Source: Candidatus Thorarchaeota archaeon
GTDB taxonomy: Archaea; Asgardarchaeota; Thorarchaeia; Thorarchaeales; Thorarchaeaceae
Assembly: GCA_003345595.1 (NCBI GenBank)
Contig: PRDI01000064.1
Location: 1-57,530, forward strand
DNA: 57,530 bases
Reading direction: 5' to 3'
This document shows positions 32,557 through 57,530 of this stretch, piece after piece (within the stretch, counting starts at the first letter, position 1; each line of letters begins with the position of its first letter). A model generated the notes under the pieces. That model had not been told where the DNA came from, made no database searches, and saw only the letters and a list, made by a program, of their open reading frames with translations. The position numbers and the translations under genes are program-made.

Positions 32557-34086
32557 TCATTCTGAGGACTTGGGCTCAGTTAGAGAGGCATTTACTGTGA
32601 GTGTGTCCAGTCTATCCACAAGGACAAAATCGAAGAGACTCCGAGTAACCCTTGACTTCGCGCCGCTGCCACCTATTCCTCTTCTTTCCCGAGTCTTCAG
32701 TCTGAAACCTGCATCAGCAAGCGCATGCGCCACTCTGTCGAGGTCGGCGACAGGTATCCTGCTCCTCCCTTCGCCCAGAGCAGACAACACAGAATGCCCA
32801 TATGACGTAAGCTTGAGGTCGCTGATGTCTGCCTGGCCTCTGTCGAGTGGAATAACCACTGATTCCATTTCTTCCTGACGGAGATGTATGATTCGGTCAG
32901 CCAACTCTGGCTCGCCGAGGGCCAGCAGAGCCTGCACATCTATGAACAGGGTAGGTCCCATTCTCTTCACCTGAGACCGAATCATCCCAATCGCGCGTTG
33001 AAGGAGAGATTCTTTGAGTTTCGAGAAGTCTGAACCGCAGTCTTCCGCGGGAATCAAGAGAGTCGGGTCTCCATCGTATCCAGACAGATAACCCAGCCCA
33101 AAACCTTCAAGCAAGCCCTTCTGAGCGTGGAACCAATGCCCCGGCGCAACTCTCGACAGAATCGCATCCAGCCGTTTCCTCAGCTGTCCAGTCCCTGCCC
33201 GCTTCGCTTCTGACTCGTAGTCATAGGCGGTCAGCTTCGAATGGTGTACACATGTCATCCATCTCAGCACTGGAGGAATTATCGCCCGAGGAGCTGAAGT
33301 GATTGGATCTCGCATTTGCAGTGCTTTTGCTGCTGCGATGTACTTGAGTGCCGGGTCAACTCTCAGCTGTACGTCGCCCCTAAGCTCAACATGAGCCAGA
33401 GTATCCAGCCAGAACAGAGGAGAGACATCGAGCGTTTCAGTTTTCGCCCGGTTGTCACTTTCATGACCAACCCGAGGGAAACATGAATCAGTCTGATCCT
33501 TTTCGCGTTGCATCCTCCCAACAATGATTCTTGACAACTGCTTGCAGTCTTGCAAGGGGTACAGGTTCAGGTTGTCTATCGGGTTACCACTGAAGTCAAG
33601 TTGGCGGACTCTTGAGCACTGTGTCAAGGGAGTGACATCGAGGGTCGTGATACCATTGTCCGACAGGTCGAGTTCTTCCAGTGATGCACAGTGACTGAGA
33701 GGCCTGAGGTCGATTGAATCCAGCCTGTTCCCTCGAAGCGAGAGTGACTGTAGTCGTGGGCAGTGTCTGAGCGGCTCTAGGTCAACGGTATTTAGACAGT
33801 TGCCGTACAGCCAAAGTAGCTCCAGATCTTGGCATCCTGCAAGTGGGCTGAGGTCCACGCGGGCAATACCTACACCACCCAGGTATATCCTGTCAGTTGG
33901 CACTTGGACTGAACTCACTTCGTTGTTGCCATGCAGTGTAGCAAGCGTAACCGTGTCCAATGGGGAAACCTCAGGCGCAGACTTCGTGGATATATCCCGT
34001 CGGGGAAAGCAGTGCGGCCAACCCGAAGAACGTACAACCAACGCGACTCGATGGCCACGACGGCAGGTGAAACCTGCTACTCTCAT
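32557..34086 (-). CDS. Leucine-rich repeat (LRR) protein with an about 300-aa C-terminal domain of unknown function
   Basis: Eight or more consecutive 22-23-aa repeats of LxxLxxCxxLxxLxLxxNxIxxIDLxP type (LEPLRHCPRLQSLSLRGNRLDSIDLRPLSHCASLEELDLSDNGITTLDVTPL...). Confidence 0.8.
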   Translation of the reverse strand: MRVAGFTCRRGHRVALVVRSSGWPHCFPRRDISTKSAPEVSPLDTVTLATLHGNNEVSSVQVPTDRIYLGGVGIARVDLSPLAGCQDLELLWLYGNCLNTVDLEPLRHCPRLQSLSLRGNRLDSIDLRPLSHCASLEELDLSDNGITTLDVTPLTQCSRVRQLDFSGNPIDNLNLYPLQDCKQLSRIIVGRMQREKDQTDSCFPRVGHESDNRAKTETLDVSPLFWLDTLAHVELRGDVQLRVDPALKYIAAAKALQMRDPITSAPRAIIPPVLRWMTCVHHSKLTAYDYESEAKRAGTGQLRKRLDAILSRVAPGHWFHAQKGLLEGFGLGYLSGYDGDPTLLIPAEDCGSDFSKLKESLLQRAIGMIRSQVKRMGPTLFIDVQALLALGEPELADRIIHLRQEEMESVVIPLDRGQADISDLKLTSYGHSVLSALGEGRSRIPVADLDRVAHALADAGFRLKTRERRGIGGSGAKSRVTRSLFDFVLVDRLDTLTVNASLTEPKSSE

Positions 34087-42563: not shown

Positions 42564-43112
42564 CTATCTCTTGATATGAGACCATGGTAGAGGTTGGGGG
42601 GTTGACTGAATGAATCTGCAAATGACCTCCCGAATGCCTTCGGGGTTATGGACAGATTTGAACACAAGTGCCGGTTCATTAGGACTGCCCATCTTGAAAA
42701 CCCGAACATCTCCCATCAAAGCAGGTTTTTCGTCTGCACTAATCGAGGTCTGAACGGACAGAATCTCGTCATAGAATACCCGAGTGGTTGTCCTTGTTAT
42801 GATTCCTCTGCGGATCCTTAGGTTCCATGTAGTAATGATGTAGAGCGTGAACCTTCTCTTGACTTCAATCAACGTGACAATAACAGCACCAGTAAACAAT
42901 GCTGTCATTCCGAGGATCCATGCGGGCATGTCTTGAATCACGAATCCCGCCGCCGTTGTCACATTCGACAGGAGCCCAATCCCTGATACAACTCCCGCGA
43001 TCACGTAGTAGATGAGGAATGCGGCCCTCTTGGTATAGATGATTGAGATGAGTTTCTCTCTCTTCTCGACGGGAAGATCACAGACAGGCTCTGCACCAGT
43101 CATCGAGGCCAC
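42564..43112 (-). CDS. Membrane-anchored bacterial-type PH domain (bPH_2/YdbT-like) protein
   Basis: Two N-terminal TM helices followed by an about 100-aa beta-rich domain. This matches the DUF304/bPH_2 architecture. Confidence 0.45.
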   Translation of the reverse strand: MASMTGAEPVCDLPVEKREKLISIIYTKRAAFLIYYVIAGVVSGIGLLSNVTTAAGFVIQDMPAWILGMTALFTGAVIVTLIEVKRRFTLYIITTWNLRIRRGIITRTTTRVFYDEILSVQTSISADEKPALMGDVRVFKMGSPNEPALVFKSVHNPEGIREVICRFIQSTPQPLPWSHIKR

Positions 43113-43284: not shown

Positions 43285-43725
43285 TCAGGAGGGATATATT
43301 TCCCATAGCGTGTCACATGCATGTACGACGTGATTGATGAGCTGCTGCACTTCCTGAGAGGTGAGGTCAGTGTCGTTGGTTTCTGAGATGACTATGATGT
43401 CGTCGTCATTATCAATCCCATACTTGACACCATTGGCCTTCCAAGACTCCTTGAGCATGTCGTAGAGGAACTTCTGCTTCACAGACTCCTCAACCTGGTT
43501 TACGCTAGTGAATGGAGCAACTATGTAGACCCACGACTCGTCATTGTTGGTGACGATCTTCACCTTGAGGTCCTCGAAATGATCTGTCTTCCAACGCATC
43601 GTTATGACTTTCGGGTCTCGGCTGTACTTTATCCCAACACTCTTCAGCAAACCTTCAACAGTGTCCAGAATGGCCATCACGAATACCTCTTGGAGGTGGT
43701 TTCCTCCGACGTTGTATATTAACAT
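43285..43725 (-). CDS. YbjN-like (T3SS-chaperone-like fold) putative sensory-transduction regulator
   Basis: About 140 aa, acidic, with an alpha/beta pattern (WKTDHFEDLKVKIVTNNDESWVYIVAPF...) typical of the YbjN domain. Tentative. Confidence 0.4.
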   Translation of the reverse strand: MLIYNVGGNHLQEVFVMAILDTVEGLLKSVGIKYSRDPKVITMRWKTDHFEDLKVKIVTNNDESWVYIVAPFTSVNQVEESVKQKFLYDMLKESWKANGVKYGIDNDDDIIVISETNDTDLTSQEVQQLINHVVHACDTLWEIYPS

Positions 43726-43825
43726 GCTTGGGATGGGCCAATCCTGCCATACATGTGGCTCGTGCGTGGGTCCTCGACTGAATAGGTTGTGAATCCTTAT
43801 ATCGATTGGTTCGGAATGATATACT

Positions 43826-44740
43826 GTGCCCCAATTCTGGGGAAAAGAGCGCCGAGGTCGGAGTATGCAGGATCTTGCTGCACTTGCAGTGCTGATGTGG
43901 CAGGTTTCACTTGGAATCTTCCTGTTTGGGCTGTTCTACACTTTCGGCTTGTTCGCACTTGGTCACGTCTTCTCGGTCATTGGAGAGGCTGGAGGAGAAC
44001 ACGAAGTTGACCACGACATAGACCACGACATAGACCATGACATAGACCACGACATAGACCACGACATAGACCACGACATAGACCATGACGTAGACCATGA
44101 CATAGACCATGACGTAGACCATGACGTAGACCATGACGTAGACCACGGTATCGATCACGATGTCGACCATGATGTTAGTCATGATGCGGATTATGGCGTC
44201 GACCAAGATACTGAGACTGACCATGATGTTGGCGTGGAGCACGATGTAGAACATGGGGGCGAGTCAGGTTTCTTCGAAACGTCAGGCGGAGCACCAATGG
44301 GAGTTACGATCGGCACATCGCTCGTCACGTTCGGGTTCTTTGGCGCTGTGCTGTACTATGAGGGGCTTGCTCTGCCGCTTCCGTTGAAGGCCCTGCTACA
44401 CATTTCTACTACCGTGCTCATCGTCTACTCAATTCGGGCACTTCTGTCAAAGGTGCTTGTAGAGTCGGGTTTCATGATTCAGCCTCGTCACATAGTCGGC
44501 CATCAAGTAGAAGCGGTTTCTACAGTCAGAGATGACTTTGGCGAGATACGAGCGGAGACCGAAATGGGCCTCAGGCGTTTTCTGGCCCGGCCGTTTGTGA
44601 AGGGTGGGTTGTTCCAGAAGGGCACTACCCTCTATGTGGTTTCTGCGGACGAGAAATTCGTCTACGTTGATCCTAGAAAGGACGTTGCCCGCTCGCAGCA
44701 GAAGCAGAGTGGTAGAGCCGGACCCGACGAGAAGAAGTAG
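43826..44740 (+). CDS. NfeD-like membrane protein (short NfeD: N-terminal TM helices plus C-terminal OB-fold) carrying an internal (Asp-His-Asp-Ile/Val)n repeat insert of about 80 aa
   Basis: N-terminal hydrophobic helices, then the repeat block, another TM pair, and a C-terminal beta-rich domain (…HIVGHQVEAVSTVRDDFGEIRAETEMGLRRFLARPFVKGGLFQKGTTLYVVSADEKFVYV) typical of the NfeD OB-fold. It lies immediately upstream of an SPFH/flotillin gene, the canonical NfeD-SPFH arrangement. Confidence 0.65.
   Translation: MPQFWGKERRGRSMQDLAALAVLMWQVSLGIFLFGLFYTFGLFALGHVFSVIGEAGGEHEVDHDIDHDIDHDIDHDIDHDIDHDIDHDVDHDIDHDVDHDVDHDVDHGIDHDVDHDVSHDADYGVDQDTETDHDVGVEHDVEHGGESGFFETSGGAPMGVTIGTSLVTFGFFGAVLYYEGLALPLPLKALLHISTTVLIVYSIRALLSKVLVESGFMIQPRHIVGHQVEAVSTVRDDFGEIRAETEMGLRRFLARPFVKGGLFQKGTTLYVVSADEKFVYVDPRKDVARSQQKQSGRAGPDEKK
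44009..44250 (+). repeat. In-frame tandem repeat with unit GACCACGACATA (DHDI). About 13 near-perfect copies are followed by about 7 degenerate copies encoding DHDV/DHGI/SHDA...
   Basis: Directly visible in the sequence at 44009-44250. The period is 12 bp, with synonymous and conservative drift at the distal end. Confidence 0.95.
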
Positions 44741-45150
44741 AGCGGCTTGTCGCTACTTGCACGCTAGTCAACTACCTCCGTTTCCGAGTTCCCATGTGAT
44801 GTTGTCAGTCACAATGATATTACGTTCTGACGAAGCGGCTCGGTAACGGGACCAATGCTAGATTACGCCAAAAAGACCTGCAGAAGTCTATGCCATTCCT
44901 GCGCAGCTTTATATCTTTTTGATTCGAGCTGTTCTCAGTGCGTCCGGTCTGCATGACCTAATAATATCCCGGATGCTCAGAGCAGGGGATTGCCATGTCC
45001 AACATGGTTGATGAGGCAGGGTTGCTTGGCACCGATGACTTGGTTGAATGGGTCTCATTTCGACAGAATGAGGCCGAATGGGACCAAGACCAGGGAGGGC
45101 AGTGGACCAGGGGGCACTGAAACCAACAACAAACGGATGTCGGCTAAGAT

Positions 45151-46491
45151 ATGCAAGATGTGTTCAGCTGGATATGGCAGAATCCCGCAGTTTCTATTCC
45201 AATCTTCGGGATTCTGGCTCTTCTTCTACTGTTGCTCTACATCAAGAAGTACGTGCGCATTTACGACCCAAATATCTTCTATGTGCATCTCCGAAAAGGG
45301 AAGGCCAAGAAGCAGGGCGAGGGCGGCATGGTCATCAGAGTGCCGTTCTTCGATAGGATTCTCGCTGTTGACAGGACAGTTCAGCAGCTGAACATCAGTG
45401 CAGAATCAGTGCTCTCCAAAGAGAAGCAGAAAATCAAGCTCAACGCCGTGCTTCAGTGGCAGGCGGAGAACGCTATCGCGACGATAAACAACGTCAAGTG
45501 GAGCGAGATACCGCCAAGACTGACCGCAATCATTGAGTCTGTCATACGAACAGCGTGTGCTCAGCTATCTGTTGAAGAGATACTGATGGAACGCCAGAAG
45601 ATCATTGAGGCAATCAAGAAGGAGCTCATAGACATCGTGAGCGAGTGGGGGCTCAAGGTCGTCACCGTCGAAATTGTAGATGTGACAGTTGTAAATGACT
45701 CGTTCCTGCGCGACATGGCAAAGCCCCGTGAAGCAGAGATGCACCGACTGGCACAGATTGCGCTCATAGATGCTGACCAGTCCACAGGCACTAAGGACAT
45801 TGAAAGGACTCGAGTACTTCGTGAGAAGGAGATTGATCGGGACAAGCTAGTTGGTGTCCAAGAACAGGCACAGATGAGGGCTATCCAGGAGTCAGAGAAG
45901 CAACGTGAACAGAGCGTTCTGGAGATCGAGCTCCAGAAGGAGCTGATGAGGAAACGCTACGAGAAGCAGCAGGCAGAAGTCGAAGCCAGCAAGTCGTTAG
46001 AAGTGGCGAAGCTGCTCGCTGAAGGTGAGCGGGAGCGCAAGGTTAGACAAGAGGTGGAGGTAGATGCACAGCGCATCCTACGGGAGGCTCAGGCTCATGC
46101 TGAGCAGATCACTATGGTCGCAACGGCTGAGGCGGAAAGAACCTTGAAGGTCACTAGCGCTCAAGCGGAAGGTATCAAGAAGACGCTTGCGGCCGCGAGA
46201 GACTACACACCACAGGCCTTCGCAAGGGACTTCCTGCAGATGCTGCCGGAGATCTATGAACACGTCAAGATTGGTGACGTGACTCTGTTTGGAGGCGGCG
46301 GCGGTGCCGCAGGAGATGGCGGCGAGAGTACAGGAAGCGGCGGAGGAGCTTTCGGCGTCTATGGCAACGTCTTGCTGCCAATGATGCTGATGGCTCGGAT
46401 GATGGGCTTCGACTTCAAAGGCCTGATGAAGGGCGCTCTTGGACAGATGGCCACTGTCGAGGATGAGGGGGATAAGTCGAAGAAGGCGTGA
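45151..46491 (+). CDS. Flotillin-like SPFH/band-7 protein
   Basis: N-terminal membrane hairpin, an SPFH core (…MVIRVPFFDRILAVDRTVQQLNISAESVLSKEKQKIKLNAVLQWQ…), a long Glu/Ala/Arg/Lys coiled-coil (flotillin repeat) and a Gly-rich tail. Length is 446 aa. Confidence 0.85.
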   Translation: MQDVFSWIWQNPAVSIPIFGILALLLLLLYIKKYVRIYDPNIFYVHLRKGKAKKQGEGGMVIRVPFFDRILAVDRTVQQLNISAESVLSKEKQKIKLNAVLQWQAENAIATINNVKWSEIPPRLTAIIESVIRTACAQLSVEEILMERQKIIEAIKKELIDIVSEWGLKVVTVEIVDVTVVNDSFLRDMAKPREAEMHRLAQIALIDADQSTGTKDIERTRVLREKEIDRDKLVGVQEQAQMRAIQESEKQREQSVLEIELQKELMRKRYEKQQAEVEASKSLEVAKLLAEGERERKVRQEVEVDAQRILREAQAHAEQITMVATAEAERTLKVTSAQAEGIKKTLAAARDYTPQAFARDFLQMLPEIYEHVKIGDVTLFGGGGGAAGDGGESTGSGGGAFGVYGNVLLPMMLMARMMGFDFKGLMKGALGQMATVEDEGDKSKKA

Positions 46492-46586: not shown

Positions 46587-48107
46587 ATGGCAACCGTTTC
46601 AATAGCTGCTCTAAGACTTATATGGCTCTCCAGTAAACTGCATGAAGGCGTTCCTGTGACCATGAAGCTAAAGGAGGTTTCAAGGGTGCAGCTCCTGTCG
46701 GAGGCTTACAGTCTTTATGTGAGACAACGGCCTCAGGGGAGTGCCCAAGTCTTCTCCTTGGACTATGCTGACAAGCTCAAAATCTACGATACATCAGGTT
46801 CCGTCAAGTCCTCCACCAATTGGAGTAGTAAGGTCCGCTGCATTGCTGTCGGTGATGTTGAGGGTGAGGGGGACGACGCTCTGGTTGGAGGCATAGCGAA
46901 CAGGGTGGTTGTTGTAGATCGTGTGGGAAAGCCAATATGGAAGATTGAACTCGAAAGTGATGTTGTCGGCTGCGATGCGCGCGATGTCGACGGGGACGAT
47001 GCCGCCGAGATTGCTGTTGCCCTGGAGAACAAACGGATCATTCTTTGGAACGATGACAAGACAGCCCTCTTTAGCCGCGTCATGGATAATCCAGTTGCAG
47101 ACATTTGGCTTGAGGAAATGACAGGAAGCCCAGAACTGGAAGTGGTGGTAGCAGATCGCAAGGGTAACCTCGTTATCCTGACCGCGGCCGGGTACGAAAT
47201 AAGGCGTATGAAGCTCGGAAACGATCTGAGAGTCTTTGCTGTCTTATCCTTTGGCAGCAGGAAGCTTTTCGTGACTGGAGAGAACTCAAATGCACTGAAG
47301 GTGTGGGATATCGACGGGTCTGAGACAGGGTCAATCGAACTCTCCGGGAAACCTAGAGCCCTTGCCACTGGGTCACTTGGTGGCATTTCAGACATGGCTT
47401 ACCTTGTCGTGAGCACAGATGACAAGAAGCTCAGCTTCTGGCAAATCCAAGACACAGACAAGCCGAGTAGACAGGAAAAAGTGACACTCCAGCAAATGGA
47501 GTCAACGAGAACTACAATCTACAAACGTGCCATCAAGTGTGGCAATTGCGGTGCACCCGCCTTGCCTGAAGCCAAGAGATGCGGATCGTGTGGGGCCATC
47601 TTGGAGATCTCGGCAGAGTACAAGATTGAGGAGTTTGTGAAAGAATGCATCGACTCCGTCATGTCTAGACATGAGAGAATCAAACTGAAAGACCTGGATC
47701 GCATCCTGAGAAGGACACTGCCCAAGCCAGTGCCTTACAACTTGCGGATGAATCTTCAGACAATGATTGAAACGGGTGACATTGATGGCTACATCGAAGG
47801 CAACACGTTCGTCCGCGCCCAAGAGACCGAACTGCGGAAGGAGGATCTTCCGACCACGGAGGCCGTCGAAAACATACCCGACGTGCTTATGTCTCTCCTT
47901 AAGGGGGAGCAGAGATTCGAGATTGACGTTCTTGAGAGTAGGACAGGCGTTCCCAGGAAAGTCTTGAGGCATACCTTGATGATACTTCTCGGGGAAGGGC
48001 TTGTTGAGGGCTACTTTTCAGGTGATGAATTCGTGCTTAATCAAAAACAGGACGCGCAGGAGTTCGTTAGAAGGCTGGAGAGTGAGCTGACGGAGCTGAG
48101 TAGTTGA
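46587..48107 (+). CDS. Beta-propeller (FG-GAP/PQQ-like repeats), C4 zinc-ribbon, tandem winged-helix protein
   Basis: About 300 aa of repeated hydrophobic-strand/Asp-Gly-Asp blades (IAVGDVEGEGDDALVGG..., DVDGDDAAEIAV..., VVVADRKGNLVIL...). Then CGNCGAPALPEAKRCGSCGAIL. Two C-terminal about 70-aa wH-like units follow. Confidence 0.55.
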   Translation: MATVSIAALRLIWLSSKLHEGVPVTMKLKEVSRVQLLSEAYSLYVRQRPQGSAQVFSLDYADKLKIYDTSGSVKSSTNWSSKVRCIAVGDVEGEGDDALVGGIANRVVVVDRVGKPIWKIELESDVVGCDARDVDGDDAAEIAVALENKRIILWNDDKTALFSRVMDNPVADIWLEEMTGSPELEVVVADRKGNLVILTAAGYEIRRMKLGNDLRVFAVLSFGSRKLFVTGENSNALKVWDIDGSETGSIELSGKPRALATGSLGGISDMAYLVVSTDDKKLSFWQIQDTDKPSRQEKVTLQQMESTRTTIYKRAIKCGNCGAPALPEAKRCGSCGAILEISAEYKIEEFVKECIDSVMSRHERIKLKDLDRILRRTLPKPVPYNLRMNLQTMIETGDIDGYIEGNTFVRAQETELRKEDLPTTEAVENIPDVLMSLLKGEQRFEIDVLESRTGVPRKVLRHTLMILLGEGLVEGYFSGDEFVLNQKQDAQEFVRRLESELTELSS

Positions 48108-48168
48108 AGGTGAATGAGATAGCACGACAGAAGCTTCGCGGTGCGTCGACAAGTATAGGGGTGGACTA

Positions 48169-51060
48169 ATGGACATCAGTAAGAGAATCGTTATCACGTT
48201 CGTGACAGTCGCGTTGATTCCAATTCTGGTCATGTCTGGGCTCGCAGCATACACCATATACAACGTATCGAGCGAGAACGCCAGTGATGCTGGTGACGCT
48301 CTGGAAGCCGAAGAGAAGGCCAACCTGGAAAGACTGGCCAATGACACAGCACTGTTCATAGAGGAGAGTATGCAGAGCTATATTGACGGCGTCTACATTA
48401 TGGAGAAATACTGCGAGGACCTCTTTAATGGACGCATCAACGCCAGTCCACAGGAGTCCTACTACTGGGATTATCTGCTTGAACTGTCGGTCAATGGCCG
48501 TAACATACCGGGTAGGCACTATGATCCGGCATACGAGTATGTGCTGGACAATGGCACAATAATGAGTCCGGGTTATGTTTCGTTTGACGTCAGCTGCTAC
48601 TACATGCCACGTCCGTTTTTCCCAAATCCGGCTGACCCATTTGACCTTGATCCGGTGACAGAGTACTATCTCAACGTGTCGAGCAACATGGACAACATTT
48701 TCAGGGCACTCCATCAAATGAATGGTGACTACATCTGGTTGTACATTGGGATCGACCCTGGCGTGTGCGGTGCCCATCTCTTCAAGAACTATCCTCATGA
48801 CACGTTGCAGTACTTCATGCTTGATGAAGCAGGCAATCCTATCCCTCCTGAACAGGACTATGACCCACCTGAGGAAGAGTGGTACGATAACGCTGCGGCT
48901 GTTAGCATTGCTAATTCGAGCATGGCATTCACTGGTCCCTACGGCGATCCATCGACGGGTCTGGTGATATCCATGGGAAGGCCAGTGTACTACGACAATG
49001 GCACTCTCATAGGTGTCGTTTCTGCTGACGTCACGTTGGACACCGTCTTGGCAAGTGTTCTAGACATCCGGGTGCTAGAGAGTGGTTACGCATATCTACT
49101 CCGGTCTGATGGTGGCGTCATTGCGCACCCCGATTTCGCCCTTGAGGGACAGACCATATACGATCTTGAGTTTGCAGCGGATTCCCTTTCTGAGAAGGAA
49201 GCGTTCGCCATTATCCTTGATACCGTTCTTGACACTGGTTATGGTCAGAACACATTTACGAAGAATGCAACGCAATGGCTGGTGACTTTCAAGCAGGTGC
49301 CGAATTCTGGCTTCCTTTTGGCTGTGGTCGTTCCCAAGTCCGAGGTGATTGCCCCGGCACAAGACGTTCTGTCACTGGTCCTGACTCAGACAACCTACCT
49401 GACACTAGTGCTTGGCGGCGTGCTGGCTGTTGTTGCCGTCATGGTCGGTGTTGTATCATACAAGCGAGGACGCTCAGTGACAGAGCCCATCAAGGAGATG
49501 ACGCGCCTCGTCGAGAAGATGGCGAAGCAGGACTTCACGAGAAGCATCACTACCACAGGCTCAATGTACGAAGAGATTGGCACAACGGTAGATGCGCTCC
49601 TCAGCTTTCAGGAGGCGTGTAGATTCGGTAATCAAGCTTTCATTAGAGGTGACTTGAGCCGCGCGCTTGCGAACTATCAGAACCTTCTCGAAATCAGCAA
49701 ACGGCTTCATATCGAAGTCGGCGAACAGACCATGTATCTGAACATAGGCAACGTCTTCCGACAACGAGCTGACATCAACAGTGCCCAGGAGTACTATGAC
49801 AGAGCGCTCTCAATTGCCAATACACTGCTTGAGAGGGCAAAGGCAGATGGGACAGATGAAGCGGATGCCATGGATAGGATTGCCTCTGTTTATCACAACA
49901 TGGCCCTGCTGGAAACGGACCGCGGAGAGTACGACAAAGCGATGTCTAGACTCGAGGACGCAGAGGCTGTCGATAAGACCCTTGATAACAAGCGCGGCTT
50001 GGCAAGGCGTTATGATGCAATGGGCCTAGTGATGATGAAGCAAGGACGCTACAGCCAGGCGAGATCACGTTTCGACGATGCAAGGAAGCTCGCTTCAGCC
50101 GAAGGATATGACAGAGCTTTGGCTTACATCGGTTTTCACATGGGCGAATTTCATGTGAGTCAATCCGACCTGAACAAGGCGAAGGCTTCATTCCTGCAGG
50201 CAATCGAACTGGCAGAAAGGACGGAGGAGTTCTGGCTACAGGTGTATTCCATGCAACAACTGGCAGACGTGTATGACCAGCTGGATGAACCCAGTCACGA
50301 CATCCGGAGGAATGCTGAGAAGCTCAGAAGATCCATCCAGTTCAAGAAGAGTGTAGTCTTCGTCATCGACTACTCTGGCAGCATGCGCACCCAAGACAGG
50401 ATAAAGGCGGCAGTAGAAGGAGCAAGGGCGATATTCGAGAGTCAGATCAATCCACAGGACGAGGTAAGCATTATCACATTCAACATAGCCCTCCAACAGG
50501 TACTTCCCCTGACCAAGAAAGGAGAATACCGAGATCTGAAAGAAAGCCCAGTCCATCGTGCTCTCGATTCAATCAGATACCCCAACTACTCGACGGCATT
50601 CTACGACGCACTCGGAAAAGCTCTTGAGGATCTCAATAAGATTGAATCGAGCGAACATAGGTGGATTATTGCCCTGAGCGATGGGCAGGATAATAGCTCC
50701 AAGACATATTCTCTGGACGCTCTGAAGGGCATAGTCACAGAGAAGGACAGACAAAGCAAGAAGAGGCCTCTTACCATCGAAGGTTTCATACGAGACAATC
50801 ACCTTGATGTGAATCTCATTATCATCGGGGTAGGAGAGGAGCTGAAGAAGGAGATTGACAAGGACGTTCGTTCTCGTGTGTCTGGCAAACGAATGGACTT
50901 CGAAGAACTGCTAAGGTCTGTCTGCGAGTCGATTCCTCAGGGACAATACCTCTCCGTAGTCGACAGCCATGACGTTCAGCTGGACATTGAGAAGGCATTC
51001 AAGCAGATCGGGGTCCTGATGGCCCAACTAGAAGTGGGAGGAGCAACTGATGATTACTAG
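48169..51060 (+). CDS. Membrane sensor: TM, extracellular dCache-like domain, TM, short HAMP-like linker, TPR repeats, C-terminal vWA domain
   Basis: TM1 (IVITFVTVALIPILVMSGLAAYTIY). An about 370-aa extracytoplasmic region with Cache hallmarks (YIWLYIG, GYAYLLRSDGGVIAHPDF) follows. TM2 (LVLGGVLAVVAVMVGVV), then TPR-like helical pairs (AL..Y...L.I), then a vWA domain with MIDAS DYSGSM plus SDGQDNSS. Confidence 0.72.
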   Translation: MDISKRIVITFVTVALIPILVMSGLAAYTIYNVSSENASDAGDALEAEEKANLERLANDTALFIEESMQSYIDGVYIMEKYCEDLFNGRINASPQESYYWDYLLELSVNGRNIPGRHYDPAYEYVLDNGTIMSPGYVSFDVSCYYMPRPFFPNPADPFDLDPVTEYYLNVSSNMDNIFRALHQMNGDYIWLYIGIDPGVCGAHLFKNYPHDTLQYFMLDEAGNPIPPEQDYDPPEEEWYDNAAAVSIANSSMAFTGPYGDPSTGLVISMGRPVYYDNGTLIGVVSADVTLDTVLASVLDIRVLESGYAYLLRSDGGVIAHPDFALEGQTIYDLEFAADSLSEKEAFAIILDTVLDTGYGQNTFTKNATQWLVTFKQVPNSGFLLAVVVPKSEVIAPAQDVLSLVLTQTTYLTLVLGGVLAVVAVMVGVVSYKRGRSVTEPIKEMTRLVEKMAKQDFTRSITTTGSMYEEIGTTVDALLSFQEACRFGNQAFIRGDLSRALANYQNLLEISKRLHIEVGEQTMYLNIGNVFRQRADINSAQEYYDRALSIANTLLERAKADGTDEADAMDRIASVYHNMALLETDRGEYDKAMSRLEDAEAVDKTLDNKRGLARRYDAMGLVMMKQGRYSQARSRFDDARKLASAEGYDRALAYIGFHMGEFHVSQSDLNKAKASFLQAIELAERTEEFWLQVYSMQQLADVYDQLDEPSHDIRRNAEKLRRSIQFKKSVVFVIDYSGSMRTQDRIKAAVEGARAIFESQINPQDEVSIITFNIALQQVLPLTKKGEYRDLKESPVHRALDSIRYPNYSTAFYDALGKALEDLNKIESSEHRWIIALSDGQDNSSKTYSLDALKGIVTEKDRQSKKRPLTIEGFIRDNHLDVNLIIIGVGEELKKEIDKDVRSRVSGKRMDFEELLRSVCESIPQGQYLSVVDSHDVQLDIEKAFKQIGVLMAQLEVGGATDDY

Positions 51061-51074
51061 GAGGCGGGAGTGAA

Positions 51075-52538
51075 ATGTCGATCACACGCAAGAAAGGCAG
51101 TTTCCGAAGAAACGTAATTGTGACTTTCATGTTGATCTCAGTCCTCTCTCTGGCGGCCACAGGCGCAGTCGCGCTGACCTTCATGAATCTTATTGGTGGG
51201 TTGACCACCGACGAGAGCTCCCAGGCGCTTGAAACCCAGATTGAAACAAACATCGAGCTGACTGCTGAGAACAATGCTCAGGTCATCAGACAGAAGCTTT
51301 CCAACGCAGAGGCAATGGTCAGTGCCATGGCTGAGGAGTGTGAAGCCCTGTTCAAAGATACGTCAACATACCAGCCAAGAAATGTGTACTATGACTACTT
51401 CTATGAGTATCCCTCGCCCGGCCTCTATCCATCGGACACACACTTCGAGGCAGGATATGGCATCAATGTGTCCTGGAACTATAGCAGCTGGTACATCCCC
51501 GGTTCCTACTCTGGCAACTATGAAACATACAAGACAGCGAATGCTGAGAGGCTTGGCAGAGCATCGAATCTTGACATCATTTTCAAGGGCGTTCACGATA
51601 GGGCCTCTGAGTTCAGGTGGTTGTATTTGGCGTTTGAAGACGACCTCTTCATCAACTACCCCGGTAGCATTGTGGGCGGAACGGATACGGAGAGGAACAA
51701 TCCACTAACACAGTGGCATTGCAGTGAAGATGACTGGTATCAGACCCTCCGGGCAGGCAACGGAAACATGTTGTTCGTTGAACCGTACTACGACCCCATC
51801 GAGGGAGTTCTTCTGATATCGATGGGTAGAGCAGTCTATGACGGGGACGGGTTCTTGATGGGCGTGATAGCTGGCGACATCACTGTGGAAGACATCAGGA
51901 CAAAGATACTGGACGTACAGGTCCTCGAAACCGGTTATGCAGCTCTCTTAACCGCTGGTGGCGACATCGTGGCACATCCCGAAGTCGAAGATGAGGATTA
52001 CGCATTGTATGGTGGAAACCTGCCTCCGTTGACAGATTTCGAAGTGAACATCCCCGGCAACACTCCTGCTTTGACGACTGCACAGATGGCACAAATCACG
52101 TCAGGGACAACAGGTACAACGGAATACCGGCGGAGCGGGATTGATCTTCTTTTGGCCTACACCCCAGTCGGCGTGGGAGGATACATCTGCATCATAGTAG
52201 TGCCCATTGAAGAGGCCAAAGCCGCAATCCCGGTGCTCGAAAGCAGGATTCAGACCGCAAACATCCAAGCGATTCTATTCATGGGGACGATTACGGTCGT
52301 GGGGATTGTTGTTGCAGGTTTTGTTGCAGGCGGCATATCAAGTCAGGTCACGAAGCCCCTACAGTACCTGATGGGTCTCGCTACGAAGAATGTCACAGCG
52401 ATGATAAAGCAAGAACGACTCGACACGCAGGATCTACAGGTCGACAGACAGTTCATAGCGAAGGATGACGAGATCGGCGAACTGGCCAGAGCCTTTCAAG
52501 GTATGCTTGACACGATGCGAGAAGACGAGAAGCAGTAG
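51075..52538 (+). CDS. Membrane sensor paralogue: TM, dCache-like domain, TM, HAMP, with no recognisable output domain
   Basis: Same Cache hallmarks as the upstream gene (FRWLYLAF, GYAALLTAGGDIVAHPEV). TM2 is followed by a HAMP-like amphipathic segment ending EIGELARAFQGMLDTMRE. It starts 15 nt after the upstream gene. Confidence 0.72.
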   Translation: MSITRKKGSFRRNVIVTFMLISVLSLAATGAVALTFMNLIGGLTTDESSQALETQIETNIELTAENNAQVIRQKLSNAEAMVSAMAEECEALFKDTSTYQPRNVYYDYFYEYPSPGLYPSDTHFEAGYGINVSWNYSSWYIPGSYSGNYETYKTANAERLGRASNLDIIFKGVHDRASEFRWLYLAFEDDLFINYPGSIVGGTDTERNNPLTQWHCSEDDWYQTLRAGNGNMLFVEPYYDPIEGVLLISMGRAVYDGDGFLMGVIAGDITVEDIRTKILDVQVLETGYAALLTAGGDIVAHPEVEDEDYALYGGNLPPLTDFEVNIPGNTPALTTAQMAQITSGTTGTTEYRRSGIDLLLAYTPVGVGGYICIIVVPIEEAKAAIPVLESRIQTANIQAILFMGTITVVGIVVAGFVAGGISSQVTKPLQYLMGLATKNVTAMIKQERLDTQDLQVDRQFIAKDDEIGELARAFQGMLDTMREDEKQ

Positions 52539-52615
52539 GTTCTATACAACTGCAGGAAGTGATGTAGCTGGCTACTGGTGATTGGTCACTCGAGAAGTCA
52601 AGGCTCATCTATGGT

Positions 52616-54409
52616 GTGGCTAGAAACGACCTGCACTTTCTGGACATAGCCAACAATGGAGACCTCGTACTACGGCTAAGAGGCCAGACCATTACATTCG
52701 ACGAGATTACGAAGAGGGTCAAGGTCGAATATAGCAAAAGAGAGGACTACACATCATCATTTACTCTCCGCATCCCGCAGCTGATTCAGCATCAGGTACT
52801 GAAGCTGAGAGCCGCGTTTGCCAATGCGATGCGAAATCTGGACTACCAAGGAGCCTTCAGGGGCGTCTATCCTGTGAAGGTCAACCAACGAGCCGATAGC
52901 ATAGTCCCTATCCTGGACGTGGATTCAGAATATGGACTCGAAGTCGGGACCAAAGCAGAGCTGCTTCTTGTGAAAAAACTGACGGCCAATCAGAAGCATA
53001 GACTGATCATATGTAACGGTGCGAAGGACCCTGAGTATCTGGACATGATAAGTCGATATTCTGAGGAGGGATACGATCTTCACACCTCGGTAGAGTCCAG
53101 CCATGAGGCCAGACTGATAACCGGTTTGTTCGAACCAGAAAGGACGAACCTGATTCTTCGATTGAAACCCTACGTGACAGCTCGTGGTCGGTGGTCACAT
53201 TCAGCGGGCAGGGAATCGAAGTTCGGCTTGAGCATTCATGACCTATTCGATGTCATTGAGCTGCTCAAGGAACAGGGCTTCCGGGACACCGTAAGAACAG
53301 TGCTTGGACACATAGGGTCACAGGTGGCAGCTATTGAGGACTTCCGTCCGTTCGCTGCTTACCTAGCTCATGCGTTTTGTGAAATCAGACGTGTTGGCCT
53401 TAGGAATCTGAAGACCATCGACTTTGGTGGGGGGCTGCCGACTGACTACACAAGTTCGTATCCCTCAGATCTTATGGATCAGTATGCGTCCATGATCATC
53501 CAGGGTGTCAAGGATGAGATCGGCGTCCACTCTCGAGGCGGGGTCACACCAGACATCATGGTAGAATCGGGACGGAGTCTTACGGCACCTGGGTCGTTGA
53601 TTGTTGTTAAGGCAACAGAGGTCCGTTCGCTCTTTCCAACAGATGTGGAACTTGCGGAAGAGGATGTCCGCGAGAGAAACACATGGAGCGTTCGGATCAG
53701 GAACTCAACATCGGTCACAGAGCTTGTAGAAATCTGGAATGAATTCTTGGCATCAAAAGCGGCACTACCGAAACTCTTGGACGAGCTTCGTGCACGGGAG
53801 AGGCTAATAGGTGACCTGAGGTCCGAACTCCGTCAGCAGCTCGCACGCCTTGTCGCGAGGACGATGAGGGCAGATAGCTTTTTGGAGACCATCTGGAGTC
53901 CGGACTATATCGTGATCGGGAATTTCAGTGTGTTCAACTGCGCTGCCGACCACGTCCTTGCGAACCAGTACTTTCCCGTTTTGCCAATAAGGGACTTGCA
54001 TGTCAGGCCTGAAACCACAGTTCGATTGGTTGACATCACGTGTGACTCTGATGGAGAGATATCTGAGTTCCAGAGAAAGGGCGTCGATGAGATGTGGTTG
54101 ACCAGAGACTACAGGCCCGTTGCTATGCCTACGCAAGAGATTGGGATAGGCATACCTGTCGGATACATCAAGAACGTGGAGGAATCGTACTTCGTCATAG
54201 CCCTGACGGGGGCCTATCAAGACGTCATTGAGATGGATCACAATCTGCTTGGCGATTTGCCAGACGTCATCATTCATCTGACAGATGATGACAAGTGGTG
54301 CATTACTTGGGCCACGGGGGCTGAGTCAATGGCGAAGATACTGGAGCGCATAGGGTACAGCGAAATGGGCGACCGTAAGGACCCATACATGTCAGACCGG
54401 AAGCAGTAG
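52616..54409 (+). CDS. speA: Biosynthetic arginine decarboxylase (SpeA; PLP-dependent fold-III decarboxylase)
   Basis: N-terminal block IPQLIQHQVLKLRAAF...GVYPVKVNQ matches the SpeA FPQILQHRLR...YPIKVNQ region. Glycine-rich DFGGGLP also present. Length is 597 aa. Confidence 0.82.
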   Translation: MARNDLHFLDIANNGDLVLRLRGQTITFDEITKRVKVEYSKREDYTSSFTLRIPQLIQHQVLKLRAAFANAMRNLDYQGAFRGVYPVKVNQRADSIVPILDVDSEYGLEVGTKAELLLVKKLTANQKHRLIICNGAKDPEYLDMISRYSEEGYDLHTSVESSHEARLITGLFEPERTNLILRLKPYVTARGRWSHSAGRESKFGLSIHDLFDVIELLKEQGFRDTVRTVLGHIGSQVAAIEDFRPFAAYLAHAFCEIRRVGLRNLKTIDFGGGLPTDYTSSYPSDLMDQYASMIIQGVKDEIGVHSRGGVTPDIMVESGRSLTAPGSLIVVKATEVRSLFPTDVELAEEDVRERNTWSVRIRNSTSVTELVEIWNEFLASKAALPKLLDELRARERLIGDLRSELRQQLARLVARTMRADSFLETIWSPDYIVIGNFSVFNCAADHVLANQYFPVLPIRDLHVRPETTVRLVDITCDSDGEISEFQRKGVDEMWLTRDYRPVAMPTQEIGIGIPVGYIKNVEESYFVIALTGAYQDVIEMDHNLLGDLPDVIIHLTDDDKWCITWATGAESMAKILERIGYSEMGDRKDPYMSDRKQ

Positions 54410-54521: not shown

Positions 54522-54761
54522 TCACTTCAAACGCTTGACTAGCCAAACTATCTTGGTTCCGTCTTCCTTCATCTCAAGAATCTGATTGCCTGTGCGCTCG
54601 GCCCAAGCTGGAAAGTCCTTCTTGGTCCCGATGTCTGTCGCGATGACCTTGATCACCTCTCCAACCTTGATCTGATTCACCAACTTCTTCATCTCAAGAA
54701 CAGGCATGGGGCATCTCATCCCACTGGCATCCAATGTCTTGACCACAACGGTATCTGTCAT
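54522..54761 (-). CDS. tusA: TusA/SirA-family sulfur-carrier protein
   Basis: LDASGMRCPMPVLEMKK carries the CPxP active-site motif in a 79-aa two-layered alpha/beta protein. Confidence 0.85.
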   Translation of the reverse strand: MTDTVVVKTLDASGMRCPMPVLEMKKLVNQIKVGEVIKVIATDIGTKKDFPAWAERTGNQILEMKEDGTKIVWLVKRLK

Positions 54762-54895
54762 GCTAGGTTCCTCACTTCCGGCCGGGACTCCTAGGTTTTA
54801 TGCATTACCATAGGTTCTCACGACGCACAATTGCATCCATTTCGACATGCTTATCTAAAGAGTTCAGGGCCGATTTCATTAACAGGTGATTAACT

Positions 54896-55291
54896 ATGGC
54901 TTTGCTGCAACTGTTTCTGCTCGTCCTGTTCGGCCTTGGCATGAGCACCATGTTCTCGGGATTCATGCTGGCAAGACGGATGGGCATGTACCTGATGACG
55001 CAGGTCATGACATTGATGTTGGCGATGTTCGTGGGGCTAGGCGCACTCGTTGTGGGGCTCTTCCTGCCGCCGACAGTGCCAGCAATGTTCGATCTGTTGC
55101 ACATCCTGCTCCTAGTTGAGCTAGTGCTGATCCTTCTGGCTACGTTGATGGAGTTTGGCCAAGCGCTGCCAATCCTCCTGAAGACCATGCAGGGCGGGCC
55201 TATTCACAGTGCCCACATTACAAACTTGATTGTGACTCTGTTCTTCACTCTAGGGCTAGTCCTGTACTACACGGAAATCGCAGTGATCTAA
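54896..55291 (+). CDS. Small polytopic membrane protein (131 aa, four predicted TM helices) of unknown function
   Basis: Strongly hydrophobic helical ORF between the tusA and dsrE-like genes. The competing minus-strand ORF 54805..55188 is non-protein-like. Confidence 0.4.
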   Translation: MALLQLFLLVLFGLGMSTMFSGFMLARRMGMYLMTQVMTLMLAMFVGLGALVVGLFLPPTVPAMFDLLHILLLVELVLILLATLMEFGQALPILLKTMQGGPIHSAHITNLIVTLFFTLGLVLYYTEIAVI

Positions 55292-55309
55292 AGTTGGGGT
55301 GATCGAGAA

Positions 55310-55672
55310 ATGGCAAGTATATACATCGTTGGGCAATGGGGACCTGAAGCCGCAGAGCGTTGCTATGGACCTTTTGTCACTGCAACAACTGCACAGGCTC
55401 AGGATGTCGAGGCTAAGATCTTTCTCATGATGGATGCCGTCTATCTGATGAAGAAGGGCATTGCTGAGAAGATAAAGGCACCAGGGTTTCCACCACTGCC
55501 CGATCTCATTGACTCGTTCCTGGACGCGGGTGGAAAGATAGAGATCTGTTCCAACTCAGCCAACTTCAGGGGTCTAACCGAGAAGGACTTCAGGGACAAG
55601 AGGATTCAGATTGCCGGTGCTGCCGCCATGATCAATGACGTGCTGAAACACGACAAAGTGATGTTCTTCTAG
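55310..55672 (+). CDS. DsrE/DsrF/YchN-like sulfur-relay protein
   Basis: A 120-aa Rossmann-like pattern with a conserved Cys in the KIEICSNSANFRGL segment. It starts 19 nt after the upstream membrane ORF. Confidence 0.65.
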   Translation: MASIYIVGQWGPEAAERCYGPFVTATTAQAQDVEAKIFLMMDAVYLMKKGIAEKIKAPGFPPLPDLIDSFLDAGGKIEICSNSANFRGLTEKDFRDKRIQIAGAAAMINDVLKHDKVMFF

Positions 55673-55790
55673 TGTCAAACCAACAGGTGAGCAGGATTTC
55701 TCCTTTGGATTCTGCATGGACTGGAATCTGAATGGGTTCCAGTCCCTCTCGTTTTTTTCGCTCTATCTGATAGGCAACTATCGTCATTGA

Positions 55791-57530
55791 TCAGCGATTG
55801 TAGGGATAGCATGGCTTCACCATTAACCCCATGAGGGCTGTCCTCAGCTGGTCATCAGACACGAATCCTGAAACCTGGTGATCCCCACAGAGCCTGATTA
55901 AAGGGACGACTGGTACATCATTCTCAGAAACACTAACAGAGGGGTCATCTACGTTGACAACCTCTACGCTCCGAGACGGAAGGCCAAACTCTTGGACCAG
56001 CCCCATCAGTATCTCAAAGGCTGGTTCACAAAAGAGGCAGTGATTGGACTTGTAGAACGTTATGCAAGAGTTCTTGCCGCAGGGCAGGTCCAAGGGTTCT
56101 CTCCAAGACGGGACTACCACAACGAACCGAGCCCCCTCCGAAGCCCTGCCTTTAACACGGTCTTCAACCCAGACTTTCCCACCTAGCTGTTTCGTAATGG
56201 CGTCAGCGACCGTGAGACCCAGCCCTCGACCTACTATCTGAATGGTAGGACTCCCGGTGCGCTTGAAGATGAATTCCTTTAGAGAGTCAGGGATCCCCGG
56301 GCCTTTGTCCAAGAACTCGAATCTTACGCTATCACCATGGTCGCTTTCTTCACATTGTACTTCGACCTCTATGTCATCCCTCTCATCATGCATTGCGGAA
56401 TTGTGGACGATGTTGAAGAAGACAAGGTCGAAGTACGTATGTGCCGCGACGTAGAACTCACCCGGCTTCAGGTCACTTCGAAGAGTAATCTGTTTCCATG
56501 GGAAGTCCTGTCGAACCGAGCTGATTGCTCTCTGCAATGAACCAAAGGGATCAGTTTTCTCCTTTATGGGGGGGTTCTCATGCACTGCCATCAGCAATCG
56601 AAGGTTAGCTACCATCCTGGCAGCGCGTTTCACATTCCATGTACTCTGTGTTACGAGAGGCCTGAGGTCACCGGGAAAGTCTGGCGACGCTTCGATGAGC
56701 CCCAGAGTGAAGAGAAGGGTCTGGTTGCAGTTGTTCAGATCGTGGGTCATGACCTCAAGATAGAGATTCGCGCGTTCCCTCTCGATGCTTTCTTGCTCCT
56801 CTGCTTCCTTCCTGTGAGTAATATCGATGACCATGAGAGCAATAGTGGTGGACTTGTCATCCTCAGGCAGTACACTGGAACTGATGCTTACCCATACGCT
56901 CTCCCCGTCTGCGTTTCGCAGCCTCATTTCCCTGTCCTTAATACTGTGACCTTCCAGCACCTCTGATATGAGCTGCCTTGCGGTGTCTGTGTCGGTTGGG
57001 TCACTCGGCAGAAACGAAGTGATGCCTCGACGTAGCAGCTCATTCTCAGGGTAGCCTAGGAGTCTCTCAGCGGCGCTGTTTACTCCTTGGATGATGCCAC
57101 GGGGACTCAGAGTGAAATATGCGATAGGTGACGACTCGTACAGCTTCTTGTACCGAATCTCAGACTGCTCCACAGCCGCCTCTAGCTCAAGCTGTTGGTC
57201 AATGTTTCTGGCAACAACAACAATCGCGGGTCTACCATCGAAGATGAAGTCTGCAGTGCTGACCTCGACGTTGAGTGGAGCGTTCTTTCCAGTGAGGAAA
57301 CGGGCTCGAAAGCTTGAACGACTCTGCTCACCGAAGGCGAATCCCTCTTGCTTCTCTTGGAACAGATGTGTCGCGACAGGATCCAGAACGGACTCAAATG
57401 CGGCCCCAACGAGGTCAGACTCGTTATATTCGAGCATCTTTGCTAAGGCAGGATTGATCATTACTATTCTGCTGTCTTGCACTACAACGATCCCGTCGTT
57501 GGCCATGTGAATAATATCGTAGTACCTACT
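55791..57530 (-). CDS. Sensor histidine kinase (PAS, PAS, DHp, HATPase_c) fused to a C-terminal thioredoxin-like CxxC domain. The N-terminus lies outside the window.
   Basis: Two PAS cores (DGIVVVQDSRIVMINPALAKMLEY, SPIAYFTLSPRGIIQGVNSAAERLLGY). A phospho-acceptor His in VMTHDLNN, G1/G2 boxes (DKGPGI, GRGLGLTVAD), and a tail with a CLFC redox motif. The frame stays open to the window end. Confidence 0.8.
   Translation of the reverse strand, partial: SRYYDIIHMANDGIVVVQDSRIVMINPALAKMLEYNESDLVGAAFESVLDPVATHLFQEKQEGFAFGEQSRSSFRARFLTGKNAPLNVEVSTADFIFDGRPAIVVVARNIDQQLELEAAVEQSEIRYKKLYESSPIAYFTLSPRGIIQGVNSAAERLLGYPENELLRRGITSFLPSDPTDTDTARQLISEVLEGHSIKDREMRLRNADGESVWVSISSSVLPEDDKSTTIALMVIDITHRKEAEEQESIERERANLYLEVMTHDLNNCNQTLLFTLGLIEASPDFPGDLRPLVTQSTWNVKRAARMVANLRLLMAVHENPPIKEKTDPFGSLQRAISSVRQDFPWKQITLRSDLKPGEFYVAAHTYFDLVFFNIVHNSAMHDERDDIEVEVQCEESDHGDSVRFEFLDKGPGIPDSLKEFIFKRTGSPTIQIVGRGLGLTVADAITKQLGGKVWVEDRVKGRASEGARFVVVVPSWREPLDLPCGKNSCITFYKSNHCLFCEPAFEILMGLVQEFGLPSRSVEVVNVDDPSVSVSENDVPVVPLIRLCGDHQVSGFVSDDQLRTALMGLMVKPCYPYNR

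Follow-up and report, generated by a model that had tools for sequence, protein, structure and literature searches.

The locus analyzed here raises the question of what a long, strictly periodic run of aspartate and histidine residues does in a membrane protein encoded next to a flotillin-like gene, and of how such a run is kept. It lies on the Candidatus Thorarchaeota contig PRDI01000064.1 (assembly GCA_003345595.1), of which positions 1-57,530 of the forward strand were analyzed; this whole 57,530-nt stretch is referred to below as the window. Two open reading frames (ORFs) on the plus strand are concerned, one running from 43826 (GTG) or 43865 (ATG) to 44740 and the other from 45151 to 46491. 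In answer to the question, the periodic array is an ancient, selected family trait of Thorarchaeota; the protein that carries it can be assigned with high confidence to the remote, YqiJ-like fringe of the NfeD proteins, and its array may serve to bind cations.

The Asp/His array consists of 22 in-frame 12-bp units

The repeat protein (43865..44740, plus strand, 291 aa) comprises a first transmembrane (TM) helix, TM1, the Asp/His repeat loop, TM2, TM3 and an oligonucleotide/oligosaccharide-binding (OB)-fold barrel, an assignment based on the ORF, the starts of its orthologues, an AlphaFold2 (AF2) model, matches to NfeD OB folds and profile-profile alignment (hhalign) to a YqiJ group. All full-length orthologues begin with MQD or MQE, and the GTG at 43826 is absent from a sister-lineage contig (L004) and reads GTA in L054, a contig from a separate metagenome record that is 99.8% identical to the window, with 15 single-nucleotide polymorphisms (SNPs) over 7271 bp. 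The GTG was therefore rejected, and ATG 43865 is the real start.

Tandem Repeats Finder (TRF) reported a 12-bp repeat with consensus GACCACGACATA at 44009-44147 (11.6 copies, 94% matches, score 208) and a looser array at 44000-44175. Tiled in frame, the array spans 22 units at 43997..44260 (plus strand), reading EHEV, 14 x DH(D/G)(I/V), SHDA, DYGV, DQDT, ETDH, DVGV, EHDV and EHGG; it thus encodes (D/E)-H-(D/E/G)-(I/V) and decayed variants of it, and 16 of the 22 units encode x-His-(Asp/Glu/Gly)-(Ile/Val/Ala). The near-perfect part, 12 units built on GACCAYGACRTA at 44009..44152 (plus strand), is recently expanded, as judged from TRF and strain comparison, and it is here that near-identical strains diverge in length and sequence. 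A preliminary description of the locus had counted about 20 Asp-His-Asp-Ile/Val repeats, pure at the 5' side and decaying towards the 3' side, and the tiling bears out both statements.

The array encodes a loop of about 88 residues, predicted to be disordered, cytoplasmic and polyanionic, with approximately 41 carboxylates and 19 imidazoles. A 100-aa slice containing it has 34 Asp, 19 His and 7 Glu, and no Lys or Arg. Histidine makes up 2.0% of residues across the long ORFs of the window, and no comparable His/Asp segment was found in its other plus-strand ORFs of at least 100 aa. In the AF2 model, based on a 22-sequence alignment, residues 42-142 have a predicted local distance difference test (pLDDT) value below 50 and no secondary structure.

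The periodic loop is conserved across Thorarchaeota

Homologues of both proteins, close and distant ones alike, were found in Candidatus Thorarchaeota genomes and in metagenomes, and the NfeD-like gene is present in 35 species-level Thorarchaeota genomes. When the orthologous genes were compared, the array was found in every full-length one, with loop lengths of 59-147 aa across species (34 loops extracted) and, by one counting, 8-25 (D/E)H(D/E/G)x units per loop. The register is strict: relative to the 777 His residues of 33 loops, Asp or Glu occupies position -1 in 85% of cases, +1 in 78% and +3 in 80%, Val, Ile, Leu or Tyr occupies +2 in 77%, and His recurs at +4 in 70%. At the DNA level, the longest perfect 12-bp-periodic run in most species is typically only 6-12 nt. 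Since the DNA repeat has diverged in most species while the register stays, the arrays must be old and kept at the protein level, and the periodic Asp/His loop is thereby shown to be maintained by selection across the Thorarchaeota class.

Fresh expansions are confined to a few lineages, namely the window itself (35 nt, period 12), L041 (43 nt, period 24), L019 (50 nt, period 36) and L045 (77 nt, period 36). Higher-order repeats with periods of 36 bp or longer occur in L024, L019 and L045, for instance as DHDLDHDIGHEV blocks in L024, and the L045 array contains at least 20 DHDL units. The arrays of L024, L019 and L045 indicate independent recent expansions with different unit sizes.

In remote relatives beyond Thorarchaeota, an acidic alternating segment follows TM1 in 26 of 28 proteins. 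In these 26, the probability of an acidic residue at i+2 is 0.6-0.97, adjacent acids almost never occur (probability at i+1 about 0), and His content ranges from 0 to 26%. In lineages without His, hydrophobic residues take the X positions and make up 40-46% of most such loops. The general rule of the loop is (acid-X)n, of which His at every fourth residue is one version. A Band_7 gene follows in both relatives that were checked, P0039, which has no His, and P0058, which is positive for the Pfam family YqiJ_N. The preliminary description had treated the repeat as an insert, a view that does not hold, because the array is a family-wide trait in Thorarchaeota and acid-X alternation extends across the YqiJ-like group.

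The repeat protein is a remote YqiJ-like NfeD

On the strength of fold, profile-profile comparison and context, we class the repeat protein among the NfeD proteins as a remote, YqiJ-like one; by curated thresholds it falls outside the family. The AF2 model, built from 22 orthologues, contains helices at residues 2-43, 145-163 and 172-201 and a five-stranded barrel at residues 214-269, with pLDDT values of 79-86 over the first 30 residues, 80-87 in helices 145-163 and 172-201, and 74-84 in the barrel. In plus-strand coordinates, the N-terminal TM helix (residues 1-43, from the AF2 helix and the hydrophobic sequence) corresponds to 43865..43993, the TM2-TM3 hairpin predicted by AF2 (residues 145-201), which is the best-conserved membrane part of the family, to 44297..44467, and the five-stranded, NfeD-type OB-fold barrel to 44504..44671. 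The three predicted TM helices thus form a membrane anchor N-terminal to the barrel. The barrel superposes on NfeD OB domains with 1.6-2.0 Å over 61-63 residues, and the top Foldseek matches, at weak E-values of 1e-3 to 2e-2, are YbbJ (8z5g, from the QmcA-YbbJ cage), YuaF, 3cp0 and 3wwv.

Sequence scans of the repeat protein against Pfam and NCBIfam returned only low-complexity noise (Sdr/Clf adhesin repeats, gp5 C-terminal domain). There was no match to the NfeD C-terminal domain (PF01957) at E <= 1, nor to YqiJ_N (PF21001) or YqiJ_OB (PF07290), for which E. coli YqiJ, used as positive control, scored 58.2 and 54.0 bits. Candidates from PDB sequence searches, with the single protein or the family profile, were acidic repeats, NELF-E and similar only, and were discarded. 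A search of 1.84 billion representative proteins with the family profile yielded only 33 relatives at E <= 0.001. Among 28 relatives scanned, YqiJ_N was matched at E <= 0.01 by 5, the four with checked scores reaching 30.9-48.1 bits, above the cut-off of 23, and NfeD (PF01957) by 3, with a best E-value of 1.8e-05; the NfeD score of P0043, 21.9 bits, lies below the 29.1-bit cut-off. With the repeat cut away, hhalign placed the family with the YqiJ group, composed of E. coli YqiJ and four proteins above the YqiJ_N cut-off, at a probability of 96.4% (E 1.2e-9, 127 columns), a score to which the TM segments contribute, and with two intermediate groups at 97.8% and 98.6%. The link to YqiJ emerged only with these intermediate sequence groups and with the repeat removed. 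The NfeD-type C-terminal OB fold proposed in the preliminary description is accordingly backed by fold search, remote profile comparison and conserved synteny. Together, the statements on identity and on evolution are the ones in which we place high confidence.

The partner is a flotillin-like SPFH protein

The downstream gene, which the preliminary description had identified as SPFH, does encode such a protein (45151..46491, plus strand, 446 aa): residues 39-204 match Band_7/SPFH (PF01145) with an E-value of 7.8e-23 and 81.9 bits against a cut-off of 23.6. The SPFH domain is preceded by a hydrophobic N-terminal TM helix, after which comes KKYVR, and is followed by a long coiled coil and a Gly-rich, then hydrophobic tail. 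By phmmer, residues 57-342 align with residues 25-327 of human flotillin-1 (E 1e-6), PDB sequence matches comprise stomatin, QmcA and flotillin-1, and the coiled coil is 30% identical to that of E. coli YqiK over 252 aa. In the AF2 model, which is otherwise poor, residues 216-350 form one helix with pLDDT up to 91. SPFH orthologues are 75-81% identical across Thorarchaeota. The Flot family (PF15975) is not matched by the window protein but is precomputed for a subset of orthologues 75-79% identical to it, and the score against the NCBIfam FloT equivalog, 38.4 bits, lies far below the 700-bit cut-off. As far as sequence comparison can tell, flotillin-like SPFH protein is a fair name for the product.

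The two genes form a conserved pair with separate promoter motifs

Among the related loci from 35 Thorarchaeota species, nearly all of those with sufficient sequence have the SPFH gene downstream on the same strand. The spacer between the genes measures 410 bp in the window (44741-45150). Of the 35 non-redundant related loci, most have a spacer of 185-410 bp and six have one of 1.4-2.2 kb, which leaves room for another gene. Within the spacer, 22 Thorarchaeota species share without any change an archaeal TATA box, TTTATA with CTGCGCAG in front of it, against a mean column identity of 32% for the spacer. In the window it is located at 44908..44913 (plus strand), 243 nt before the SPFH ATG, and its distance from that ATG, 163-264 nt across the 22 species, points to a long leader for the SPFH gene. 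A conserved TATA-like element of the NfeD-like gene itself lies about 60-80 nt upstream of the start; in 20 other Thorarchaeota loci it reads GGTTTATTT/CTTTATAT, about 70-80 nt before the start, and in the window, the putative TATA box TTATAT, proposed from conservation, is found at 43798..43803 (plus strand), 62 nt before ATG 43865. The NfeD-flotillin operon of the preliminary description therefore stands as regards the SPFH neighbour and is not supported as regards the operon, because each gene has its own conserved TATA box and the spacer reaches 1.4-2.2 kb in six loci. The genes are better described as a conserved neighbour pair with separate promoter motifs, for which the sequence leaves co-transcription possible; the two TATA boxes would let both genes be transcribed separately.

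Other features of the spacer were also recorded. Its DNA is better conserved than the flanking coding DNA, with 90% versus approximately 82-84% identity to L004. A conserved (A/C)A(A/G)GTGCG lies about 25 nt downstream of the spacer TATA box. In most species (e.g. L014:5140-5174, L019:1560-1594), the motif GTGAG(T/A)AG(A/G)A precedes the start codon of the SPFH gene by about 10-20 nt; at that site the window lineage has a different sequence, GGATGTCGGCTAAGAT. RNAalifold predicted no consensus structure for the SPFH leader of 20 species. The leader also contains a 41-codon ORF (MSNMVDEAGLLGTDDLVEWVSFRQNEAEWDQDQGGQWTRGH; 44995..45120, plus strand), of uncertain coding status, which is called as a gene in close relatives. 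It shows 96% nucleotide identity with 3 synonymous and 2 non-synonymous changes, and it was not found in more distant Thorarchaeota, beyond the lineage of the window. Given these counts and this restricted range, it was not accepted as a gene, and it could be an upstream ORF or merely conserved leader RNA.

Possible function of the loop

The reading that we propose, and judge probable on balance, is that of a YqiJ-type NfeD and a flotillin-like SPFH protein forming a pair with a length-variable, cation-binding loop. This judgement is a compromise between the confidence placed in identity and evolution and that placed in cation binding as the function of the loop, an analogy-based proposal to which we give somewhat less than an even chance. 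The NfeD barrel would dock onto the SPFH assembly at the cytoplasmic face, by analogy with YbbJ-QmcA and NfeD-FloA. The N-terminus would lie outside, and the loop and barrel in the cytoplasm beside or under the scaffold, since three TM helices are predicted and Arg/Lys residues follow TM3 and the SPFH anchor, as the positive-inside rule would have it. There, on the most economical reading, the flexible polyanionic loop might hold divalent metals and/or protons at a membrane patch organized by the scaffold.

Several reports bear on this proposal. The peptide Ac-HDHDHDHDH is a ligand for Mn(II), Fe(II) and Zn(II) (PMC11938343), and RcnA has a loop, (HD)9, that is described as a Ni/Co site and lost 54 nt during passage (PMC6760104). 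NfeD barrels are cytoplasmic and attach to their SPFH partner (PMC11222466), and 26 heterodimers of QmcA and YbbJ are reported to build a cage in the cytoplasm (Tan et al. 2024, as cited in PMC13086221). Altered iron metabolism is reported for a Shewanella knock-out of a YqiK-family (COG2268) gene (PMC1468410). By analogy with such systems, the metal buffering or sensing suggested in the preliminary description is plausible, cation binding being the presumed basis. A bolder version would have the loops of YqiJ-type NfeD proteins line the inside of flotillin-like cages, about one per subunit, and so create a membrane-attached polyanionic compartment that stores or buffers divalent metals or protons, its capacity tuned by rapid in-frame gain and loss of repeat units. 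We regard this version as speculative, with a small chance of being right; if true, NfeD would gain its first concrete biochemical role, and would do so in the archaea most closely related to eukaryotes.

A number of observations weigh against the pair-and-loop reading. As to identity, no NfeD or YqiJ model matched the window protein in the Pfam and NCBIfam scans, and hhalign of the family against E. coli YqiJ alone failed, with a probability of 1%. As to structure, the AF2 model of the SPFH protein is unusable (mean pLDDT 55.5, with the SPFH domain below 50), the predicted disorder of the loop is the default reading of a pLDDT below 50 rather than a finding, and the cytoplasmic placement of the loop takes for its basis only three predicted TM helices and the positive-inside rule. 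As to cation binding, relatives of the same architecture (e.g. P0036, P0037, P0039, P0046, P0054) have 0% His in the equivalent loop, which weakens a His-centred metal version; the ancestral property is therefore acid-X alternation, not His chelation.

These His-free acidic loops also fit a ligand-free entropic or electrostatic spacer that fills the space under the SPFH cage, keeps it open or sets the reach from TM1 to the hairpin, for which only charge, disorder and approximate length would matter. Such a spacer would agree with the predicted disorder, with the 59-147 aa range of lengths across species and with the tolerance of length changes among near-identical strains. It does not readily account for the strict four-residue register that 33 species retain on DNA that has diverged (+4 is His in 70%, +2 is hydrophobic in 77%), and the near absence of adjacent acids points to a geometric rather than a bulk-charge constraint. 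We consider this explanation unlikely.

Alternatively, the acid-X alternation might fold into an amphipathic beta structure in which Asp lines one face and the opposite face is made of His or hydrophobic residues, formed between subunits or on the membrane surface. Assembly might then be triggered by cations or pH, and the loop would serve the complex structurally or as a pH switch and not by buffering metal. The i+2 spacing of acids and the rarity of adjacent ones in 26 of 28 remote relatives would follow, as would the hydrophobic X positions of His-free lineages, and His/Asp pairs titrate near neutral pH. The AF2 model, however, shows the loop without secondary structure at pLDDT below 50, and with its net charge of about -40 it would be unlikely to form sheets or touch the membrane in the absence of counter-ions, so that this alternative seems to us improbable.

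Array length varies between strains in whole units

The array varies in length and is prone to mutation, but it does not act as a switch that shifts the reading frame. L052, which is 99.67% identical to the window over 5.1 kb downstream of the array and 97.5% over 5.2 kb upstream, has 17 units against 22 in the window, an exact difference of 60 bp, and the same 60-bp difference separates the window from L004 of the sister lineage. The window and the two contigs whose downstream flanks are at least 99.67% identical to it thus carry 22, 22 (L054) and 17 (L052) units. An allele of 271 aa with 17 units, found in the sister lineage, is identical on 20 contigs from many samples, and a 263-aa allele has two units fewer; P0059 and P0001 lie 2 units apart, and P0066 and P0010 lie 1 unit apart. 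Three of the 15 SNPs between the window and L054 cluster in a stretch of roughly 40 bp inside the pure part of the array. The recent expansion and strain-to-strain copy-number variation that the preliminary description had predicted are both confirmed by these comparisons. Every observed length difference is a multiple of 12 bp and keeps the frame. The array probably gains and loses its 12-bp units by slippage or unequal recombination. Loop length, and with it presumably capacity or reach, differs between close strains while the protein is never switched off.

The region is evidently hard to assemble. The contigs L013 and L056 end inside the orthologous array and L043-L045 carry runs of N inside it; orthologue gene models are often truncated, and many database entries begin within the repeat (e.g. 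P0003, P0006, P0011, P0018). Because several assemblies break or have N runs in the array, single length calls need care. The exact 291-aa protein is also not on record in the gene-position collection, which, together with the broken assemblies, would be expected if the long perfect array of the window were an artefact of assembly expansion or collapse. Against this, the independent contig L054 matches the window over its 7271 bp without a gap and also has 22 units, and the 17-unit allele recurs identically on the 20 sister-lineage contigs, making an artefact very improbable. A slipped-strand contingency locus turning the gene on and off, the other suggestion drawn from a tandem repeat with copy-number change between strains, has next to nothing in its favour, because the unit is 12 bp, all variants are in frame and the array lies in the coding region, not the promoter. 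Both explanations can be regarded as largely excluded, and the on/off switch as excluded.

Gene neighbourhood

Upstream of the NfeD-like gene, and divergent from it on the minus strand, the window encodes a bacterial-PH-domain (bPH_2) membrane protein (42564-43112) and a 146-aa protein with weak CesT-like similarity (43285-43725). Many Thorarchaeota genomes have this pair upstream of their NfeD-like gene, right next to it or at a distance of about 3 kb. Downstream, about 8 kb (46587-54409) are inserted, relative to L001 and L003, between the SPFH gene and a TusA/DUF5400-like/DsrE-like block. The insertion encodes a protein with a beta-propeller and a zinc ribbon (46587-48107), a 963-aa dCache-TPR-VWA protein (48169-51060), a second dCache protein (51075-52538) and an Orn/Arg-decarboxylase-like protein (52616-54409). 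The conserved block itself (window 54522-57506; L001:8476-12843; L003:8510-12768) begins in the window with TusA (54522-54761, minus strand) and ends with a PAS histidine kinase (55791-57506, minus strand); between them lie a small membrane protein (54896-55291) and a DsrE-like protein (55310-55672). An ArsR-type HTH_5 regulator and a P-type ATPase come after the block in L001 and L003, and their equivalents here would fall past the end of the window; their proximity in these two contigs is a weak hint at a metal-related link.

Further away, a 509-aa leucine-rich-repeat protein (32557-34086, minus strand; LRR_8 E 7e-21) is unusual for an archaeon but in keeping with an Asgard genome. Scanning the window for Rfam families and tRNAs gave no matches.

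Novelty and significance

To our knowledge, no role has been assigned to the YqiJ-type members of the NfeD family, and no paper in the literature searched names NfeD alongside a histidine-rich region. Recent papers still call the function of NfeD proteins unknown or unclear (PMC11222466, PMC13086221). A class-wide periodic Asp/His array with rapid length change, an acid-X rule in the YqiJ-like group and separate conserved promoters for the two genes appear to be undescribed. The strict Asp/His loop of an archaeal class, the acid-X alternation of the wider family and the length change between strains together define a peptide for cation-binding tests, and the strain length variants constitute a natural allelic series for phenotype; the loop thus gives a testable handle on the roles of NfeD proteins. 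The pair is among the best-conserved membrane-scaffold modules of Thorarchaeota and bears on membrane organization in Asgard archaea.

Comparison with known systems

The alternating His/Asp composition has an analogue in RcnA (YohM), a Ni/Co efflux protein with a variable tandem repeat in Salmonella. There too, a membrane-protein loop is encoded by a short in-frame repeat whose units are gained and lost between isolates, a 54-nt deletion having taken out (HD)9 on passage (PMC6760104). RcnA belongs to an unrelated transporter family, and its period is the dipeptide HD rather than the tetrapeptide DHDI, so the resemblance is one of analogy only.

Another known system is the NfeD-FloA pair of S. 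aureus (PMC11222466), in which the NfeD gene likewise precedes the flotillin gene. The OB-like domain of that NfeD is cytoplasmic and binds the flotillin coiled coil, NfeD stabilizes flotillin oligomers, and the function reported there is the stabilization of unfolded proteins (PMC11222466). FloA is a shorter type of flotillin, and the S. aureus NfeD has a multi-helix membrane domain and no acidic repeat. The short NfeD proteins of solved structure, B. subtilis YuaF (2k14), P. horikoshii PH0471 and 1510-C (2exd, 3wwv), 3cp0 and E. coli YbbJ (8z5g), share with the window protein a five-stranded barrel, a membrane anchor before the barrel and an adjoining SPFH gene. They differ in sequence, with barrel identities to the window protein of 13-25%, and an acidic repeat loop has not been described in them.

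The NfeD-SPFH pairing and the YqiJ-YqiK type, the latter as NfeD2-SPFH2 (Hinderhofer et al. 2009), were already known (PMC2636767), and a close counterpart is E. coli YqiJ-YqiK, in which a protein with DUF1449/YqiJ_N and YqiJ_OB has a flotillin-family partner. Unlike E. coli YqiJ, the window protein is archaeal (Thorarchaeota) and below the Pfam YqiJ and NfeD thresholds. The two E. coli genes are separated by 26 bp, compared with 410 bp and an intervening promoter motif in the window, and the E. coli loop has about 8 residues, against about 88 aa of strict tetrapeptide repeats. Gene order and strand are the same in both pairs, as is the kind of partner, a long SPFH protein that includes a coiled coil. 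In E. coli YqiJ, TM1, a short loop containing His and Asp, two TM helices and a C-terminal OB barrel follow one another as in the window protein, and the sequence DAHLDHYD stands exactly at the place equivalent to that of the array.

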